A stretch of DNA of 32,751 bases from Fidelibacterota bacterium (GCA_018263365.1 JAANXI010000175.1:1-32751); one strand, 5' to 3'. Positions 8,181 to 25,191 are shown, numbered from the stretch's first letter. Made by a program: numbers and translations. The notes: generated from the letters alone by a model not told the origin.

Positions 8181-9532
8181 TCACATGGGATGACATCCAG
8201 GCGTTGAAACCTCTCCGGACGCAAAATCTTCCGAAAGAGGAGTCGATTCGGGGCGCGGATATCGACAGCCGCCGAATGGACGAGGGCATGATTTTTATCG
8301 CCCGACGCGGCGAGGAGAGGGACGGGCATGAGTACATCCGCCCTGCCCTGCAGTCCGGCGCTGTCGCAGCGATCATAGAGCAACGGTGGTTTCAGGATGC
8401 AGAGGATATTAATGATCTCCCGTTAATCGTAGTAACCGATGCCGATCAGGCGCTTCGCGAGCTGGCAAAACAGGTGCGGAGCCGTTTTACCGGGCCGGTA
8501 CTCGGTATTACCGGGAGCAATGGTAAGACAACTACAAAAGAGATGGTGGATGAGGTACTCTCTGCGAAATATAACGTGCTTTCTACTCCCGGTAATTTTA
8601 ACAATCTCTGGGGATTGCCACTGGCAATTCTCCGCACGAAACCGGAGCACGACTTCTGGGTCCTGGAGCACGGGATGAACACCACCGGTGAAATCGCTGC
8701 CCTCTGCGATATTTCCAGGCCCACCTGTGGCCTTATCACCACCATCGCCGAAAGCCACACCAAATTTTTCAACTCACTGGATGAAATCGCAGCGGAGAAG
8801 CTCTCACTGTTTAACGCCGTACCATCTAATGGTGTGATTTTCAAAAACCGCGACAACCCGTATACCGCCAACTACTATTCCGAAAATAAGATCGCGATTA
8901 CCTACGGTACGGAGTCTAAAGCAAACTATACCGGACAGATTGCATCTGTCGACGCCTACAGTCGGGTTCAATGCCACATCGATAAAATCGGAAAGGTCAA
9001 ACTGCGTGTTCCCGGTATGTTCCAGCTGATAAATGCGCTTGCCGCCGCAACGGTCGGTTTGACTTTCGGCATCCCTGCGCCACAGGTTAAAGAACAACTG
9101 GAAAATTTCAGTGGTGTGCCCGGTCGCGTAAACATCCTCGAGAAAAGGCAGTGTACGGTTATCGACGATACGTATAATGCCAATCCATCATCAATGCGCG
9201 AGGCGGTTGATATCCTGGCAAAGATGCCGACCGGCAATCGCCGGATTGCTATCCTTGGCGATATGCTTGAGCTAAACAGCACCACTGAGCAGCATCATTA
9301 CGAAATCGGCGAATATCTGGCAAATCACCGCATAGATGTGGTTGTAGGTGTCGGCTCGCACTCCGAACATATTATTGAAGGGGTCCGGGAGCATTCCGAT
9401 GCGAGAACTTTCCATTTTCCGGACTATGCCGCCTGTATGGACCGGCTTGGAGACATTGTAAACGCCGGGGATATTGTTCTGGTCAAAGGCTCGCACGGGA
9501 TTCACCTCGAAAACGTGGTGGAGGCGCTCTGA
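8177..9532 (+). CDS. murF: UDP-MurNAc-tripeptide--D-Ala-D-Ala ligase MurF
   Basis: GITGSNGKTTTKEM, GNFNNLWGLP, EHGM, DDTYNANPSSM, LGDMLEL, VKGS. Confidence 0.97.
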   Translation: MITWDDIQALKPLRTQNLPKEESIRGADIDSRRMDEGMIFIARRGEERDGHEYIRPALQSGAVAAIIEQRWFQDAEDINDLPLIVVTDADQALRELAKQVRSRFTGPVLGITGSNGKTTTKEMVDEVLSAKYNVLSTPGNFNNLWGLPLAILRTKPEHDFWVLEHGMNTTGEIAALCDISRPTCGLITTIAESHTKFFNSLDEIAAEKLSLFNAVPSNGVIFKNRDNPYTANYYSENKIAITYGTESKANYTGQIASVDAYSRVQCHIDKIGKVKLRVPGMFQLINALAAATVGLTFGIPAPQVKEQLENFSGVPGRVNILEKRQCTVIDDTYNANPSSMREAVDILAKMPTGNRRIAILGDMLELNSTTEQHHYEIGEYLANHRIDVVVGVGSHSEHIIEGVREHSDARTFHFPDYAACMDRLGDIVNAGDIVLVKGSHGIHLENVVEAL

Positions 9533-19645: not shown

Positions 19646-19882
19646 TATTTTCTCCGTCATTCCTTGAATTCAAAAATCGTTAAAATTTAGACGTTCACAA
19701 TCGAAAAGCAAGCGGTAAAGCGTTTTCTGCTCAGAAAACGCGGATAGAACCGCCCGAATCGATCCCCGCCGTGGCGGTGTCATTGCCGGTGAATTCATAA
19801 AAGCGTCAGTGAAGGTGGATTTCTTGAATCCCACGCCCTCGCTCAAACCCACTTCGCGGACTTTAAGCGGGTTTTCCATTAG

Positions 19883-19914
19883 ATACAAATATGTCGCCTC
19901 CGTAAGGCTCACTG
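19883..19914 (-). repeat. dispersed REP-like repeat, homologous to 32018-32049
   Basis: Reverse complement CAGTGAGCCTTACGGAGGCGACATATTTGTAT versus CAGTGAGCCCTGTCGGGGCAACACATTTATAG: 23/32 identical, ungapped. Confidence 0.6.
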
Positions 19915-20023
19915 CTGAAATTTTGGGTTATTTTTTTTGAGAACTGATAACTATTCACTGTCGACTGAGTATCGTCTCACAACTGAGGTCTCAGGTTTTA
20001 CTACTCATGCAATTTTTTACTAG

Positions 20024-20221
20024 CCTGAATGATTCATTAAATAGCAGCATATTTTTGGGGAATCCAATAGAACAAATATTTAGTGGGCTATTCCGAGCCA
20101 GAGCAAGCACTGGAAATGTTCCAAGTAGAGACGTTCCATGGAACGTCTCTACATAACTATAAATATTGATCTTAGCACGCCTAAAATGCGCGCATTTATT
20201 TCGATTTATGAATTATTCGGG
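20024..20221. mobile_element. 198-bp MITE-like element with IS1380-type TIRs and an internal GTAG REP palindrome
   Basis: Left end CCTGAATGATTCATTAA, right end TTTATGAATTATTCGGG, TAG on both flanks. Perfect palindrome GTAGAGACGTTCCATGGAACGTCTCTAC at 20125-20152. Confidence 0.72.
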
Positions 20222-20316
20222 TAGTAACTCATTCTCCAAAATTTCTAATAACCATAACGCAATAACACCAGAATACGTGAGTAAGATTAAGAGTACGATT
20301 ATGATTAGGACATGTA

Positions 20317-20364
20317 AACTCGAATACTCTAACACCCGAACACTTTAACACTATAACACTCCAT
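20317..20364 (+). repeat. octamer tandem array (AACTCGAA TACTCTAA CACCCGAA CACTTTAA CACTATAA CACTCCAT)
   Basis: Six degenerate 8-nt units, preceded by a hexamer run (AGTAAG ATTAAG AGTACG ATTATG ATTAGG, ~20280-20309). Confidence 0.7.
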
Positions 20365-20374
20365 CCCTCTCCAT

Positions 20375-20403
20375 TTGCTCCTTCACAGGAAACCCGATAT
20401 ATT
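20375..20403 (+). promoter_or_regulatory. putative sigma70 promoter of dusB
   Basis: TTGCTC, 17 nt, TATATT, ending 8 nt before the ATG; no Shine-Dalgarno sequence. Confidence 0.45.
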
Positions 20404-20411
20404 TAGCCGTT

Positions 20412-21428
20412 ATGAAAATTGGTCCATTAGATATACCAAGCCGGGTTCTCCTGGCACCGATGGCTGGCGTCACGGATCATATTTACCGGGTGATCTGTAG
20501 GGAGTTCAGCGCGGGACTCGTTTATACGGAATTCGTCAGTTCCAACGGGATCATCCGGGAGAACGAGCGGACGCTGGAGATGCTCCACTTTGAGGAGCGG
20601 GAGCGTCCAATCGGCATCCAGATTTTTGGCGATGATGCGGATATTCTGGCGGAGAGCGCCGCATACCTTACCGAGTCACTAGAGCCGGACCTTATCGACC
20701 TGAATTTCGGCTGCCCGGTACCGAAGGTGACCAAAAAAGGGGCGGGATCGGCTATTCTGAAGGATCAGGGAAAGGTCGGCGAGGTCTGCGAAAAAGTCGT
20801 GAATGCGGTGGATATCCCCGTGACAGTGAAAATGCGCAGCGGCTGGTCTGACAAAGAGATCGTGGCGCCGGAGTATGCGCAGCTCATGGAATCGCTGGGA
20901 ATTGCTGCGGTGACAGTCCACGGCCGCACCACGCAGATCCGGTATGAAAAGCCGTCAGATAACACGGTGATTGCGGCAACGAAGGAAGCCGTGGATATTC
21001 CGGTTATCGGTAACGGTGACATTCTGCAACCGGAAGATGGGCGAAGAATGATCGACGAAACCGGCTGCGACGGTGTGATGATTGCCCGTGGCGCCCTGGG
21101 CAATCCGTGGATACTGCATCGCACCAATCATTATCTGGAAACCGGCGAACTATTGCCTGAACCTGACTATGCCGACCGGCTGAACTTATGTTTCCGACAT
21201 CTCCAGCTGAAGGAAGAAGAAAAGGATTCGACGCTTGCGGCCATGTTGATGAAAAAGAACATCGGCTGGTATCTCAAAGGGATGCCGAATGCGTCGACAA
21301 TGCGCCAACTCATTAATACCAGTGATGAGTCTCAGGAGATGTATGAAATACTGCGTGACTATGCGAAGGAACTCAATGTTAAGTTAACGGCAGAAGAACC
21401 GGCGCTCTCCTACCAAAAAAGCGTCTGA
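20412..21428 (+). CDS. dusB: tRNA-dihydrouridine synthase DusB
   Basis: LAPMAGVTD, TEFVS, QIFG, IDLNFGCP, VHGRT, VIGNGDI, DGVMIARGALGNPW. Confidence 0.95.
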   Translation: MKIGPLDIPSRVLLAPMAGVTDHIYRVICREFSAGLVYTEFVSSNGIIRENERTLEMLHFEERERPIGIQIFGDDADILAESAAYLTESLEPDLIDLNFGCPVPKVTKKGAGSAILKDQGKVGEVCEKVVNAVDIPVTVKMRSGWSDKEIVAPEYAQLMESLGIAAVTVHGRTTQIRYEKPSDNTVIAATKEAVDIPVIGNGDILQPEDGRRMIDETGCDGVMIARGALGNPWILHRTNHYLETGELLPEPDYADRLNLCFRHLQLKEEEKDSTLAAMLMKKNIGWYLKGMPNASTMRQLINTSDESQEMYEILRDYAKELNVKLTAEEPALSYQKSV

Positions 21429-21911
21429 TTATCCCGGCAGTATTCGCTGAATATATTTCCCAAAATTCCTGACTAAATCGATCCCTTTTACAATACCCCG
21501 TAACGCAGTCAATTCTTCAGCGGAACCCCGCCAGATCTCATTGATGATCTCTTTTTCGCGTTCGTTATCACCATTGAGAAGAGAATTCACCAGCGCCAGC
21601 GCCACCACGACATCGTCGACATAGCCGACCGGCCCGGCGACAGCTTCGGGAATAACATCGAAAGGCATGACAAAATATCCCACGGCGACCGCCACGCGCC
21701 GCTTTGTCTTTTTAGAAACTTCGGGATGATTCAGCAGGCTGATGAGCAGATGCAGCACAAGCGGCCCCGCCTTGACAAGCCGGATGGTTGTTTTCATTGG
21801 CAGAATTTTCAGGAGTCTGTATTTTTCCCGATACCGCGTGACATTCTCATCCCAGTGTGCGATTTTCGCTTCGATCTTGTCGTAATAGTCGTCGAGTTTT
21901 TCCTGGTTCAC
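21429..21911 (-). CDS. YkvA/DUF1232 family protein
   Basis: YFVMPFDVIPE-AVAGPVGYVDD matches the DUF1232 motif Y-x-x-x-P-x-D-x-I-P…G-x-x-D-D. GTG start with GAGG RBS. Confidence 0.85.
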   Translation of the reverse strand: MNQEKLDDYYDKIEAKIAHWDENVTRYREKYRLLKILPMKTTIRLVKAGPLVLHLLISLLNHPEVSKKTKRRVAVAVGYFVMPFDVIPEAVAGPVGYVDDVVVALALVNSLLNGDNEREKEIINEIWRGSAEELTALRGIVKGIDLVRNFGKYIQRILPG

Positions 21912-22145
21912 TTGTTACCCCTCACCTGCTCTGTTTCTTGTTTCAATTGAGTCTACCGAATGGAATGTAAAGTGTAAAGTACCAGATTAGTATCGGAGAT
22001 GGAAAATGCCAGAAAATGCGACAGGAAATACTACCCTCCGAACTGTTAGGTATATCACATGATGAAATGGCTCGTGACCCACAACACTCAAAGGCCGGGC
22101 GATCTCTCATATCTTTGAGAAAAGCAACAAATCGGAGGGATCACT

Positions 22146-22544
22146 ATGAGGGCGTTAATCTTATGTTTGCCTTTTTTGGCGCTGCTTTTCACTTTTTGCG
22201 ACCAACAACAGTATAATAAAGAACTCCTGACGGAACGATTCAACCAATCAGACAGCGCAATCCACGCCTTAGTCAATGATGCGAAGATCGAGATAATGGA
22301 AAGCACGGGTGACACACTGTACAACGAGCATATTCAATATATCCTGGAATCGGCCAAATTCCGGCTGGATTCGCTGGAGCATTCCATAGATACTTATAAC
22401 CGGCAGAGCTTTGAGCGCGTTGAGGCGCGAATCGAGCAAATTATTTACCAAACTGAGCAGGATTTACTGGAGCTGAAACAAGTCGCAAATGAAAAAACCA
22501 AGTCGGTGTACGATGAACTAGCGCGGGGTGTCAAGAGTTCCTGA
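22146..22544 (+). CDS. hypothetical helical protein, putative lipoprotein
   Basis: GGAGG RBS; hydrophobic signal ending LLFTFC; coiled-coil-like body. Confidence 0.65.
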   Translation: MRALILCLPFLALLFTFCDQQQYNKELLTERFNQSDSAIHALVNDAKIEIMESTGDTLYNEHIQYILESAKFRLDSLEHSIDTYNRQSFERVEARIEQIIYQTEQDLLELKQVANEKTKSVYDELARGVKSS

Positions 22545-22613
22545 GTAGATCCCTTTGACGACTAAATTCGCCGTTGGATTCAATCGTAAAATCGAATATA
22601 TTTCACTCCCAAT

Positions 22614-22697
22614 GGAGGTGTAGCCCTAACTGGTAAGGCAGCGGTCTTGAAAACCGCCGGGTTCACGCCCTTGGGGGTTCGAATCCCTCCACCTCCG
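22614..22697 (+). tRNA. tRNA-Ser (anticodon UGA), CCA not encoded
   Basis: Acceptor stem GGAGGTG/CACCTCC with G discriminator, anticodon arm GCGGT-CTTGAAA-ACCGC, long variable arm, T-loop GTTCGAATC. Upstream TTGGAT-17 nt-TATATT (22574-22602). Confidence 0.97.
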
Positions 22698-22704
22698 CTG
22701 TCCG

Positions 22705-22739
22705 AAATCCCCTGAGCCATAATGGTTGCAGGGGTTTTT
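22705..22739 (+). terminator. stem-loop plus U-tract after tRNA-Ser
   Basis: CCCCTG-AGCCAT-A-ATGGTT-G-CAGGGG-TTTTT. Confidence 0.65.
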
Positions 22740-22866
22740 GCGTTTTCAGCGGTGGATAAACCGTGGCACACCGTTACGCCACATCTGCGCAAAACTTATC
22801 ATATCACCCTCGACTGTTCGACGGGAGTTCCCCGTAAGAGTAATAATCCCCCACAAGTTTACCTAG

Positions 22867-23187
22867 CCTGAATAATTCATAAACTCAGGAAAAAAGAGTT
22901 CCAATAGTGGTTGTAAAATGTTAAATTACAGTAAGTTAAAAACACATAAACATTCACAACCACTCAGGAACTCTCTTATGAATAATGTACCAGCTATTCC
23001 CGGTAAAAACCAGACCGAATTCCCATTGGAAGTCACCGCCGTGGAAGGCACTCCGGTTTTCATCGATGCGCAAGGAGGCGACCTCACCTCGGATGCGGGC
23101 GTGCTCCTGCTCCGGGAGACCGAAGCCCACGTCGGGATCATTGCGACGTTGACCGATTGTCTGCCCGATCCGCGGCATCCGTCGTTG
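22867..23187 (+). mobile_element. IS1380-family relic: left TIR and 5' fragment of transposase
   Basis: TIR CCTGAATAATTCATAAA at 22867. N-terminal motif GGDLTSDAGVLLLRE…LTDCLPDPR is typical of IS1380 transposases; similarity ends after DPRHPS. Confidence 0.8.
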
Positions 23188-23485
23188 CATTTGCTTGGGC
23201 CGGCTGCCTTCCTCCGAATAGAGCACCGCAAAGACGTCCTCCGGAATGCGGCGGAAGATCAGCTGGTAGAACTGATATGCGTCCGAGTCCTCCAGCTGCT
23301 GCCGCTTCCGGTCGCTCAAATGCGGGCCATAGCCGAACGCCTCGGTTTGGGTGGGCGATTGGTTGGGTTTGAACAGGGGGATCCCACGAGGTTAATCGTT
23401 GGTAAACTCCTGATATTATTAGAGATAATGTACCAAATTCCCCGGAGAATTCCTATGAAAAATCGGGACTTTTTAGACTGCACTC
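23188..23485 (-). pseudogene. 5' fragment of a second, oppositely oriented transposase (IS1182/IS5-like, family uncertain)
   Basis: Minus frame from CTG at 23376 reads LFKPNQ…LSDRKRQQLEDSDAYQFYQLIFRRIPEDVFAVLYSEEGSRP, resembling transposase N-termini of the form F..I.E..FA.LYS..GSRP. Possible IS end GAGTGCAGTCTAAAAAGTC from 23485. Confidence 0.55.
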
Positions 23486-23497
23486 ATGTCTTTAAAA

Positions 23498-23696
23498 CCT
23501 GATAATTCATAAACCGGGTTTATTCTGATGATAAGACCAAATGTAACTTATGGAATAACACGTGCTTGTAGAGACACGCCATGGAGGGTCTCTACCCAAC
23601 GATATTGTGGACGGTTATACTCCACAACTTGCACCTCCAAACCCCGCCGGAACATGGATGGTATGATCCGGAAATCGCATTCATGAATTATTCAGG
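23498..23696. mobile_element. 199-bp MITE-like element with IS1380-type TIRs and an internal GTAG REP palindrome
   Basis: Left end CCTGA-TAATTCATAAA, right end ATGAATTATTCAGG, AAAA on both flanks. GTAGAGACACGCCATGGAGGGTCTCTAC at 23568-23595. Confidence 0.7.
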
Positions 23697-23863
23697 AAAA
23701 GATAAATTCATTAGGGTATTTTCATATTCATAGAGTAACGATGTGGTTATAATGACATATGATAACAACCCCATGAAGACTGTAATGCCGTATCTTCTTT
23801 TTCGTCTATTTGACTCCCCATTTTTTGCCTTTCCCAGTATGGTTGAATACAATTGGATTGTGT

Positions 23864-24913
23864 TTATTCCCCAAGAAATGCAGTAACCCCGTCCGAATAA
23901 TACGTAGTCCCGGACGAATCGATCACCATTCCTTCGACATTGGGGAGGTTGTTGACCCAGCGCATACCGTCAATTGGCCCCAAAATAAATAACGCTGTGG
24001 CGTATGCATCGGCCTGCTCCGGACTTTCAGCAACAATAGTTGCGCTCAGTGACTTCCGTGTCGGTAAACCCGTTTCCGGATTCAGGATGTGATGATAACG
24101 GACTCCGTCGTATATGTAGTATCTCTGATAATCACCGGAGGTGGCCACGGCATTTCCTCCGGAGATGTTGAGTACTTCAGCAAGGTCATTAGTCTTACGG
24201 GGATCCTGAATGCCGACCTTCCACGGTTGACTGTTTTTCATCCCGAGACAGTAGAGATCGCCGCCCGCATTGATGAGTGCATCTTCGATTCCCTGCTCTT
24301 TCAAGATATCAATGGCCCTGTCGACAGCATACCCTTTCGCAATACCGCCTACAGCAAGACGGACACCAGATTTTTCCTTTTCCAGAAGGAACTTCTCGTT
24401 TTCCTGTCGCAGGCTCACATAGGAAAAACCAACAATTTTCAGGGACTGTTCGATCGTCTCTTTTGCAGGTGGCTCAGGATTATCTGCCGTCAAATTGTAG
24501 AGGTCCAGCACAGGCTTTATCGAAATATCGAATGTCGAAACCGAGGTTTCGTAATACTCTTTTGCCCTCGCCAGTAGATTGTACACTTCATCCGTTGTAT
24601 GAATTGAATCGTTGGCGTAATTGAACCGGTAGATTTCGCTTCCCTGGTTCTCTTCCCACAACAGAACGGAAATCCGTTCAATTTCCTCCTGCGCCGCCAG
24701 CATGCTTGCTCTGGCGGATTCCCGGTTCTCCGCGAAAATGGTGTAATCGATGACCGTATCCATGGCGAAACGGGTGAAGTTAAACGGTTGCTGATTTGAA
24801 CTGCAGGAAACGAGCACAAGGAGTGAAAAAAAAGTTGCCAGGAACCAACTGGGATAATAAGAAAATAATTGGTTGGGATTGACTCCCTGAAATTTGCCGG
24901 AGACACCACTCAT
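23864..24913 (-). CDS. apbE: FAD:protein FMN transferase (ApbE family lipoprotein)
   Basis: Lipobox LVSC, AMDT, FDISI, GGIAKGYAVD, INAGGD, ATSGDYQR, YHHILNPETG, ADAYATA; at the end of the rnf cluster. Confidence 0.96.
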   Translation of the reverse strand: MSGVSGKFQGVNPNQLFSYYPSWFLATFFSLLVLVSCSSNQQPFNFTRFAMDTVIDYTIFAENRESARASMLAAQEEIERISVLLWEENQGSEIYRFNYANDSIHTTDEVYNLLARAKEYYETSVSTFDISIKPVLDLYNLTADNPEPPAKETIEQSLKIVGFSYVSLRQENEKFLLEKEKSGVRLAVGGIAKGYAVDRAIDILKEQGIEDALINAGGDLYCLGMKNSQPWKVGIQDPRKTNDLAEVLNISGGNAVATSGDYQRYYIYDGVRYHHILNPETGLPTRKSLSATIVAESPEQADAYATALFILGPIDGMRWVNNLPNVEGMVIDSSGTTYYSDGVTAFLGE

Positions 24914-24926
24914 TTTATTTCAAGAG

Positions 24927-25191
24927 GTAGAGCATGGAGGGAATGAAATTTCGAACGTCCTCGATTTAGTAGAGACGTTCCATGGAGAGTGTGTGAAAAC
25001 AGAAAAACAAGGGAAAAATTGTGAGTAATCATCGTATTTTCTTCCGAGTAGAGACGTGCCATGGCACGTCTCTACATTCAATAATATCAATGGGTTATCA
25101 CATAATTTATGCTGTGTGGTGTTTAGGAACGCCCGGAGGAAAAAATGTCTTGACTCGGTATTCTCACACACCCTCCATGGAACATCTCTAC
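24927..25191. repeat. cluster of GTAG-type REP sequences forming a nested inverted repeat (REPIN/BIME-like)
   Basis: Arms 24969-24999 and 25161-25191 are 28/31 complementary. Perfect 28-bp palindrome at 25048-25075; degenerate copy at 24927. Confidence 0.85.

Follow-up and report, generated by a model that had tools for sequence, protein, structure and literature searches.

How can a short palindrome of the kind linked to one class of transposase come to lie at a fixed distance from the ends of small elements whose termini are of the kind used by another? The question is raised by a stretch of 32,751 nucleotides (nt) from a Fidelibacterota bacterium (GCA_018263365.1, JAANXI010000175.1:1-32751), hereafter the window. 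In it, two elements of about 200 bp, A and B, are bounded by terminal inverted repeats (TIRs) resembling those of IS1380-family insertion sequences (ISs), and each carries inside a 28-nt palindrome with GTAG feet. An original prediction, made from the sequence alone, had taken A and B for composites that join the signals of a DDE transposase and of an HUH-type REP-associated tyrosine transposase (RAYT), the enzyme class that acts on repetitive extragenic palindromes (REPs), with unrelated filler between the signals. [quoted passage not shown]

The window is contig C85 of a 1.94-Mb genome in 178 contigs that is 88.6% complete (G000). It was compared above all with the sister genome G001, of the same genus and 97% complete, and with G002, a genome of the same family.

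Two elements with one layout

The layout that the original prediction had described, namely 101 + 28 + 69 nt in A and the inverted order 70 + 28 + 101 nt in B, is what the sequence reads (Table 1), B repeating the plan of A in the opposite orientation. The left TIR of B, CCTGATAATTCAT, starts at 23498 and has one base missing, and its right TIR lies at 23683-23696. With at most one mismatch, the 14-nt end CCTGAATAATTCAT occurs four times in the window against 0.03 expected, the left end of B with its deletion being a fifth occurrence beyond these, and the palindrome pattern occurs three times against 0.00 expected. Both counts are so far above expectation that chance is excluded. Whereas the two halves of the REP of A pair perfectly, the right inner arm in B reads GAGG and not GCGT, which breaks two arm pairs; the copy of B on contig C66 retains GCGT.

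As predicted, the interiors of A and B could not be aligned with each other beyond the TIRs and the palindrome. Each aligns over its full length with a paralogue elsewhere in G000. The partner of A is C94:1203-1396 (91.2% over 194 nt); that of B is C66:1153-1346 (97.4%, likewise over 194 nt), which has flanks of its own. No open reading frame (ORF) of at least 60 amino acids (aa) lies wholly within either element. The short direct repeats reported around both elements hold up fully for B, where AAAA at 23494-23497 and 23697-23700 forms a clean 4-bp duplication. Around A, by contrast, only TAG/TAG is exact, the four adjoining bases being CTAG on the left and TAGT on the right; on our own reading, these would amount to a 4-bp CTAG/GTAG duplication if the last G of the right end were counted as flank.

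A lies in the divergent spacer ahead of a tRNA-dihydrouridine-synthase-like gene (20412-21428), and B beyond the 3' end of an ApbE-family gene (23864-24913, minus strand). A divergent promoter region and a gene end are places where immobile regulatory or structural cassettes that the host maintains, such as RNA hairpins bordering genes, might be expected. Roles of REPs in transcription termination and mRNA stability have been proposed (PMC3733652, in the part of that paper available to us), and the elements fold more stably than their shuffled sequences (z = -3 to -5). Nevertheless, folding A and B as RNA or DNA gave nothing beyond TIR pairing and the palindrome, from which this stability arises. 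Together with the target duplications and IS-type ends, the presence of copies at non-orthologous places in two species, and the nested insertions described below, this leaves very little room for repeats that never moved.

Table 1. Coordinates of the elements discussed, in the window unless a contig or locus is named.
Feature	Position	Strand	Remarks
MITE A, A-type subfamily, 198 bp	20024..20221	+	101-nt long arm, REP, 69-nt short arm
Left TIR of A, CCTGAATGATTCAT	20024..20037	+	14-mer scan
REP of A, GTAGAGAC-GTTC-CATG-GAAC-GTCTCTAC	20125..20152	.	perfect palindrome of 14+14 nt, double-foot
Right TIR of A, CCCGAATAATTCAT on the minus strand	20208..20221	-	14-mer scan
tRNA-Ser (anticodon TGA)	22614..22698	+	nest of mobile-element debris begins ~170 nt downstream
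IS1380-family IS relic	22867..23193	+	left TIR 22867-22880, flank CTAG, 111-nt leader, first ~70 transposase codons
Multi-copy segment ending the IS relic, not part of B	23195..23497	.	contig depth, loose end
MITE B, B-type subfamily, 199 bp	23498..23696	-	70-nt short arm, REP, 101-nt long arm
REP of B, ACGC variant	23568..23595	.	12 of 14 arm positions pair
Host REP split by N-type MITE	24969..25191	.	halves 24969-24984 and 25176-25191, CATG duplicated
N-type MITE, 191 bp	24985..25175	-	own REP at 25048-25075; between ApbE-family gene and next gene
RAYT gene of G001	L202 8484-9125	-	REPs at 9190-9217 and 8430-8457
48-nt REP forms of G000	C32:16858-16905, C40:9576-9623, C74:4004-4051, C153:10678-10725, C166:6826-6873		
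C-type MITE copies of G000	C1:8276-8612, C4:136-389, C43:8474-8715, C78:7301-7521, C107:14442-14665, C110:11482-11674, C116:759-979, C129:5080-5320, C169:1708-2128		

The ends are of IS1380 type

Full-length elements of related genomes that encode a PF13701 (DDE_Tnp_1_4) transposase share their ends with A and B and are flanked by a 4-bp duplication, which bears out the predicted IS1380 affinity. One of these (L003, 1805 bp) has the ends CCTGAATTATTCAT and CCTGATTAATTCAC and is flanked by TTAA/TTAA, and another (L193, 1668 bp) has the end CCCGGATTATTCAT. The relic lying between A and B begins with the exact 14-mer TIR, and its left end resembles, over ~110 nt, that of a truncated IS copy in G002. 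What is left of its transposase matches PF13701 positions 3-54 at 23038-23193 with 36.6-37 bits (cut-off 34.7). The match is a fragment from which the catalytic part is absent, and tblastn with a full-length relative recovers only residues 14-58. The relic ends abruptly near 23193-23195, where another repeated element truncates it. The summed contig depth of 23195-23497 is 74-134 against ~17 for neighbouring genes, and identical foreign sequence precedes the loose end at 23195 in three runs; the ORFs of this segment gave no Pfam match.

The original prediction had itself named a way in which B could dissolve, namely that 22867-23696 is a single, internally deleted IS1380 copy of which the TIR at 23696 is the right end. 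The exact 14-mers at 22867 and 23696 do face each other, 830 bp apart. However, they lack a common flank, the left one being preceded by CTAG and the right one followed by AAAA, whereas B taken alone is flanked by AAAA on both sides; the 97.4% copy of B on C66 has both ends; and an unrelated multi-copy segment, starting at 23195, cuts the relic. We regard a single deleted IS as scarcely credible.

A scan of the whole of G000 for paired TIRs returned 17 pairs of MITE size, 193-421 bp apart, to which A has to be added, its own left end having been missed by the scan. Perfect 4-bp duplications flank six of the 17 (TTAG three times, CTAG, CTAA and AAAA), and seven further pairs match at three of the four positions. 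Among the complete elements of G001, six of seven have perfect 4-bp duplications.

The REP is not a constant companion of these ends. Nine copies of a C-type subfamily in G000 have the same IS1380-type ends and other, nested inner palindromes, with no GTAG REP (Table 1); some of these copies have small palindromic blocks that others lack. A metagenome-assembled genome (MAG) of the Mariprofundaceae (L135-L160) contains the exact 20-nt IS1380-type end 26 times, and in the rest of the genome collection this end was not found. In the MAG it delimits a 160-bp MITE with a different inner hairpin and perfect YTAR duplications in 12 of 13 cases. Since an exact end of this length recurs in a zetaproteobacterial MAG, the same IS lineage seems to have seeded MITEs in a distant phylum. 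Among full-length IS1380 elements, the palindrome lay beside the transposase gene in 0 of 13 loci. Because both MITEs with the same ends and full-length ISs do without the REP, it is no general requirement of the transposase.

Two further ideas on the origin of the layout were tried and set aside. A full-length IS1380 with a REP beside its transposase gene might have served as a recombinational source of the MITEs, and the 13 loci just mentioned offered no such element. The leader from the left inverted repeat to the ATG measures 99 nt in L003 (1298-1397), 100 nt in L193 (161-261) and 111 nt in the relic, which is close to the 98-103 nt of the long arm; no sequence similarity was seen, and the agreement is treated as a coincidence.

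The palindrome is a double-foot REP

According to the available part of Quentin et al. 2018 (PMC6006769), transposases of TnpA_REP subclass 2.4 (RAYT group 4) have the motifs NH[IFV]H, WQ and YIxNNP and are associated with 'double foot' REPs, long hairpins with a 5' foot GT[AG]G and a 3' foot C[TC]AC. Such REPs are inserted in frame in tnpA_REP, between HuH and Y, and the double foot could derive from an inverted dimer by central deletion. The 28-mer of the window, of the form GTAGAGAC-N4-CATG-N4-GTCTCTAC, has these feet and this hairpin, and dispersed copies occur in both G000 and G001. Its inner four bases vary only as compensated pairs (GTTC/GAAC, GTGC/GCAC, GTTT/AAAC and ACGC/GCGT, with GAGCC...GGCTC in one A-family copy). 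Exact-pattern REPs number 23 in G000 and 33 in G001, against 0-4 in each of 39 other relatives searched.

A transposase that belongs with this REP was reached through genome G035, where the palindrome lies in frame within a gene for a 185-aa tyrosine transposase (58 bits with NCBIfam REP_Tyr_transpos, below its cut-off of 80, and 23.4 bits with Pfam Y1_Tnp). With this protein as query, G001 yielded an intact RAYT homologue of 213 aa with the motifs NHVH, WQ and YIRTNP (Table 1). One full and one half REP lie in frame between its HuH and Y, one REP lies 64 nt ahead of its start codon and another 26 nt past its stop codon, so that the gene has the arrangement of a REPtron, a tnpA_REP gene flanked by the same REP. 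Among 79 homologous RAYT loci from named genomes of many phyla, 42 have the palindrome within the gene, for the most part at 246-351 nt from where the match begins; in 11 it lies in the flanks, and in nine in both places. With the G001 gene carrying and flanked by the palindrome, and 42 of 79 loci carrying it, the predicted link to an HUH (RAYT) transposase stands, and by its sequence the palindrome is to be classed as a double-foot REP of the TnpA_REP subclass 2.4 (RAYT group 4) kind. This part of the finding is known biology.

The RAYT gene for which the original prediction had called is therefore at hand, intact, in G001, but a search of G000 with the G035 protein did not find a gene of subclass 2.4 in that 88.6% complete assembly. 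The sole Y1 match there (C101:3857-4108, locus L002) belongs to another type and is broken, with a stop inside the gene, an altered HuH and no REP nearby. PF01797 was a poor guide to these genes: none of its loci in G001, G003, G011 and G035 had a REP, the right gene being found only via the G035 protein. In three cyanobacteria with the exact 28-mer, the palindrome lay within 1.5 kb in none of the 20 PF01797 loci kept (of 27), a result that says little, as subclass 2.4 genes score only ~23 bits and were probably missed.

The exact 28-mer of A occurs at no fewer than 121 loci in other genomes, mostly of Nostocales and other cyanobacteria and some of Bacteroidota. In 80 of these loci that were fetched, an IS1380-type end within 260 nt of the 28-mer was never seen. 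The 28-mer can be read as two 14-nt halves without a spacer; no case of its moving on its own, as a REPIN would (two inverted REPs that move with their spacer as a unit), was seen.

Some details of these contexts are recorded here in their own right. In cyanobacteria and Bacteroidota (L014-L093) the 28-mer often lies within other, lineage-specific repeat shells, and the copy at L086 is the centre of a perfect 88-nt palindrome. The RAYT locus of G001 (L202 7232-9931; G001:C28, ~99.2-101.9 kb) holds six REPs within 1.4 kb, and its RAYT gene sits between Cas1-like and Cas2-like genes with a Cas4-like gene adjacent (named by eye from sequence).

The REP position is fixed across copies and genomes

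The distance from each IS1380-type end (at most two errors) to the first GTAGAGAC (at most one mismatch) was recorded over 20-260 nt inward, a scan that, like the previous one, missed the left end of A itself. G000 has 40 such ends, with GTAGAGAC at 68-72 nt in 15, at 98-102 nt in 14 and elsewhere in 11; two of these matches, C36 among the 15 and C110 among the 14, proved on inspection not to be REPs. In G001 all five matches in the 59-89 window fell at 69 or 71 and all five in the 90-120 window at 98-101, and the complete elements measured (71, 98), (71, 99) three times, (101, 69), (69, 99) and (69, 91). G002 gave a match at 103 nt, followed by a half REP and an end of the N type described below. 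A metagenome scan (exact TIR + N{56,86} + GTAGAGAC) returned four matches, three of them by chance; the sole real REP context had d = 70 and then, again, an N-type end.

The fixed REP position noted in A and B is thus repeated in many copies of G000 and in G001. The survey of TIR pairs that the original prediction had proposed gives a divided answer: REP offsets are not scattered, but total lengths are, over 193-421 bp, because the REP-free C-type subfamily is among the pairs and several REP-bearing copies contain nested insertions.

The arms are homologous but far diverged

Sorted by eye and by alignment, the arms of the two genomes form at least five short-arm and at least 12 long-arm classes. 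No position is conserved between classes past the first 17 nt of the long arm. Even so, between-class identity in register is 0.30 for long arms, against 0.23-0.29 when shifted, and 0.38 for short arms, against 0.23-0.36. Ten of 66 pairs of long-arm classes and six of 21 pairs of short-arm classes exceed the 99th percentile of shuffles; the long arm of B is among those linked, with links to two G001 classes. The arms are therefore not the 'unrelated filler' that they had been taken for, but deeply diverged homologues whose residual similarity is weak yet significant.

Lengths are kept while sequences change. Five copies of the A family, drawn from both genomes, share a length of 198 bp and align without a gap at ~87% mean identity. 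Seven N-type copies measure 187-189 nt between their conserved ends with only single-base gaps, once a 20-nt loop insert present in two of the seven is set aside. With indels this rare, arms can drift near saturation and yet stay 98-103 and 68-72 nt long, and the lack of any indel among five copies at ~13% divergence means that descent explains the spacing, no special mechanism being called for. The simplest reading of the conserved spacing that these alignments suggest is that all copies descend from one REP-bearing founder. The original claim that spacing rather than sequence is conserved can be kept for the geometry, but not for the arms, which are homologous and whose spacing descent would account for.

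The A-type copies of G001 are 76-87% identical to A (20024-20221). Three of them (L239-L241) reach 84-87%, are 198 bp long and align without gaps, while the flanking orthologous genes of the two genomes are 72-79% identical. Since the MITE copies are more alike than these genes, the A-type family would either have arisen after the two species separated or have passed from one to the other. One G001 copy of the A family has four changes in its REP, and another has a compensated pair.

A different history would have a RAYT insert the REP independently into unrelated IS1380-type MITEs at a preferred site, the geometry being convergent. HUH superfamily transposases do insert beside short specific targets (PMC6006769, available part), the same REP is found in many unrelated contexts in cyanobacteria and Bacteroidota, and, as we read them, the ~20 nt on either side of the REP are alike in A-type and N-type elements, though turned round with respect to the long and short arms. 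On the other hand, no arm subfamily lacking the REP was found, and no target motif conserved across classes is visible beside the REP. The homology in register of short arms of different classes, and REP variants that track arm subfamilies, also speak against it, and we consider convergence improbable.

A second MITE family is nested in the REPs

Many REPs are split at their CATG centre by a further element, the N type, which measures 191 bp, or 211 bp with a loop insert, ends in (C/G)AGG(C/G)TGTGTGA and contains its own REP, whose distances to the two conserved end cores are 98-100 nt and 61-62 nt. G000 has about a dozen complete copies. In the copy present in the window (Table 1), 99 and 62 nt separate the REP from the AGGSTGTGTG end cores (100 and 63 nt if counted to the element ends); the outer flanks of the split host REP are complementary at 17 of 21 positions, and its inner variant is GTTC/GAAC, against GTGC/GCAC in the N element.

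The same holds in all four clean cases (C58, C74, C85 and C95). The outer half-REPs pair with each other at 17-18 of 21 positions and have an inner variant other than the one found in the REP within the N element; in C58, with an A-type host MITE, and in C74, with a B-type one, this outer variant matches the host's. It follows that the N element entered a REP that was already there. A copy on C1, outside any REP and with flanks TTTA/TTTA, fixes the N-type duplication at 4 bp. Recombination at the REP also occurs, as is seen from hybrid elements (C128, C80 and C95:1975-2185) that have an N-type arm on one side of it and an IS1380-type arm on the other. No autonomous parent of the N type was found; G001 has pairs of MITE size only, and there were few matches beyond the family.

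Two observations concern variants of the REP itself. A 48-nt form with a 20-nt hairpin insert beside the CATG centre is found always within N-type elements (Table 1), and this insert is a very small nested insertion. Compared with the REP of the C66 copy, that of B has a cluster of three base differences at 23582-23595, and through those three bases its right inner arm resembles the first bases of the N-type end (CATGGAGGGT). The cluster may be the scar of a lost N-type insertion.

Most REPs of the genome are carried by MITEs

G000 has 40 intact REPs in addition to split copies. Twelve lie at the canonical distance from an IS1380-type end, 17 at that from an N-type end, two beside both types of end and nine beside neither, although inspection showed MITE-like flanks around at least three of the last group. 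With 31 of 40 inside MITEs, the REP population of this genome is largely MITE-borne, in agreement with the suggestion that the composite might be a route by which REPs spread. For the capture of short DNA, which had been suggested as well, no evidence was found. The claim that two transposition chemistries are joined is correct inasmuch as IS1380-type ends and a RAYT-type REP occur in one element, but action of a RAYT on the composite is not supported, and there is no evidence that both transposases act on one element.

Probable descent with a hitch-hiking REP

Taken together, these data make descent, with the REP hitch-hiking on IS1380-type MITEs, the probable explanation, to which we incline with some reserve. 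A and B would be two diverged subfamilies of one old MITE family, moved in trans by an IS1380-family DDE transposase that would recognise their 14-17-nt ends and yield 4-bp duplications at YTAR-like or A/T-rich sites. The founder would already have held one 28-nt REP, with ~70 nt between it and one end and ~100 nt between it and the opposite end, this REP being the hairpin cognate to a tyrosine transposase of TnpA_REP subclass 2.4 (RAYT group 4). All later subfamilies would have inherited the layout, their arms drifting near saturation with rare indels and the spacing remaining at 68-72 / 28 / 98-103. The REP would thus be a passenger on a DDE-mobilised vehicle, most copies in G000 being carried in this way, and the N-type MITE would land in its CATG centre and bring a fresh REP along.

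Several results weigh against this account. Firstly, an intact IS1380 transposase, which the original prediction had proposed to look for, was found neither in G000, where there is only the relic of the window, nor in G001, and G002 has only the truncated copy; the mobilising enzyme is consequently one that we infer. MAGs often lose IS copies, which makes this absence weak evidence either way.

Secondly, the empty-site alleles that had also been proposed as a check did not turn up. The public runs containing the stretch are marine, seawater and brine metagenomes. Logan contigs from four runs of four studies, compared over 19700-24000, break at the repeats, and none has a joint from which precisely A or precisely B is missing. 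A single joint recurs (22883 -> 23566); it extends over no more than 22 nt on one of its sides and derives from other copies. In G001 the orthologous region (dusB 79%, upstream gene 72%, 3.3 kb apart) is rearranged and too highly diverged for an empty site to be read. Given that no such allele was found, we infer movement from the duplications and paralogues. The dense nesting of repeats explains why assemblies break in this lineage.

Thirdly, 12 classes of long arm share no conserved position after the first 17 nt and are nonetheless all 98-103 nt long, so a real length constraint on the arms is possible. Between subfamilies, the REP is as well conserved in its outer 8+8 nt and its CATG as the TIRs are, while the arms are near-saturated. 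Such conservation resembles that of a site required in cis, and a pure passenger is unlikely to stay so intact. Within one subfamily, single copies decay in the REP as elsewhere, and the conservation between subfamilies could also stem from recombination among REP copies. Lastly, a second MITE family with unrelated ends, the N type, has nearly the same layout (99/28/62).

These last points lead to the alternative of a dual-signal element, in which the REP is needed in cis and its position is selected, either because a hairpin or cruciform helps the ends to meet or because the RAYT processes the element. It would account for the fact that only the TIRs (17 nt) and the REP (its outer 8+8 nt and centre) are kept between subfamilies, that the inner 4+4 nt change only in compensated pairs, that arm lengths stay at 98-103 and 68-72 nt in 12 and seven sequence classes, and that the N-type family, with unrelated ends, has a similar layout. 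Yet MITEs with the same ends and without this REP evidently work, both the 160-bp Mariprofundaceae MITE with its clean duplications and the C-type copies, and the full-length IS1380 elements likewise lack it (0 of 13 loci). Five copies without an indel at ~13% divergence show that length can be kept without selection, recombination at the REP (C128, C80 and C95:1975-2185) could keep it uniform, and the subclass 2.4 RAYT that might process the element was not found in G000. On balance we think a dual signal unlikely. We are just as doubtful of its widest form, three interdependent selfish elements, with the RAYT setting the hairpin, two DDE-type MITE families needing it off-centre, and the layout under selection. 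If that were true, the MITE families would spread the hairpin even without the RAYT, and the N type would replace each target that it destroys. Descent with a hitch-hiking REP remains the explanation that we prefer, and the locus poses the question of whether a 200-bp MITE can need an internal hairpin at a set distance from its ends.

Relation to known systems

MITEs, double-foot REPs with their RAYT, and insertion of ISs into REPs are all already known, and a literature search by sequence strings returned nothing relevant. A and B resemble Type I, IS-derived MITEs in being non-coding, 198-199 bp long and present in many copies that form subfamilies, with the ends of full-length IS1380 elements and 4-bp duplications. 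They differ in that nothing is conserved inside them except a REP, which goes with a transposase of another family, and in that an autonomous partner was not found in G000 at 88.6% completeness. In the accessible portions of the literature on IS1380 and miniature inverted-repeat elements, no IS1380-derived MITE with a REP was seen.

With the double-foot REPs of subclass 2.4, as described in the available part of PMC6006769, the palindrome shares its feet, the motifs of the RAYT, the in-frame REP and the flanking REPs. The word MITE is not used in that paper. Unlike the REPs it describes in that part, those of G000 are mostly cores of DDE-type MITEs and not free REPs or REP pairs, and their cognate RAYT was not found in G000.

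IS1397 reportedly inserts in the palindromic units that bacterial interspersed mosaic elements (BIMEs) contain, to go by the title of a reference. Other ISs that insert specifically into REPs have been described (Tobes and Pareja 2006, PMC1525189, in the part available). The N-type MITE is like these in entering at one fixed place of the REP, its CATG centre. It differs in being a 191-bp MITE with an intact REP of its own, so that it destroys one target and supplies another, and also in that its autonomous parent was not found.

Elhai et al. in 2008 are said to have dealt with the very small nested repeats of cyanobacteria, which are mosaic repeats. BIMEs, and REPs combined with other repeats, are similar to the present case in their mosaic make-up, with a REP at a regular place in a longer shell (Di Nocera et al. 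2013, PMC3733652, available part). What sets A and B apart from BIMEs and the cyanobacterial shells are IS-type TIRs with target duplications, which are not reported for them in the portions of these sources that were available.

REPs are usually discussed as being spread solely by their own RAYT and as long-term residents kept by vertical descent. In G000, about three quarters of the copies of a RAYT-type REP lie within transposons of a different chemistry, and the cognate RAYT was not found there. A REP family may in this way outlive or outrun its enzyme by hitch-hiking, and where REPs hitch-hike, REP counts would be no safe guide to RAYT activity. Set beside the systems above, three features look new as variants: a RAYT-type REP as the fixed core of a diversified DDE-type MITE family, a REP population carried mostly by MITEs, and a REP-targeting MITE that brings its own REP, in which one repeat is cargo and landing pad together.

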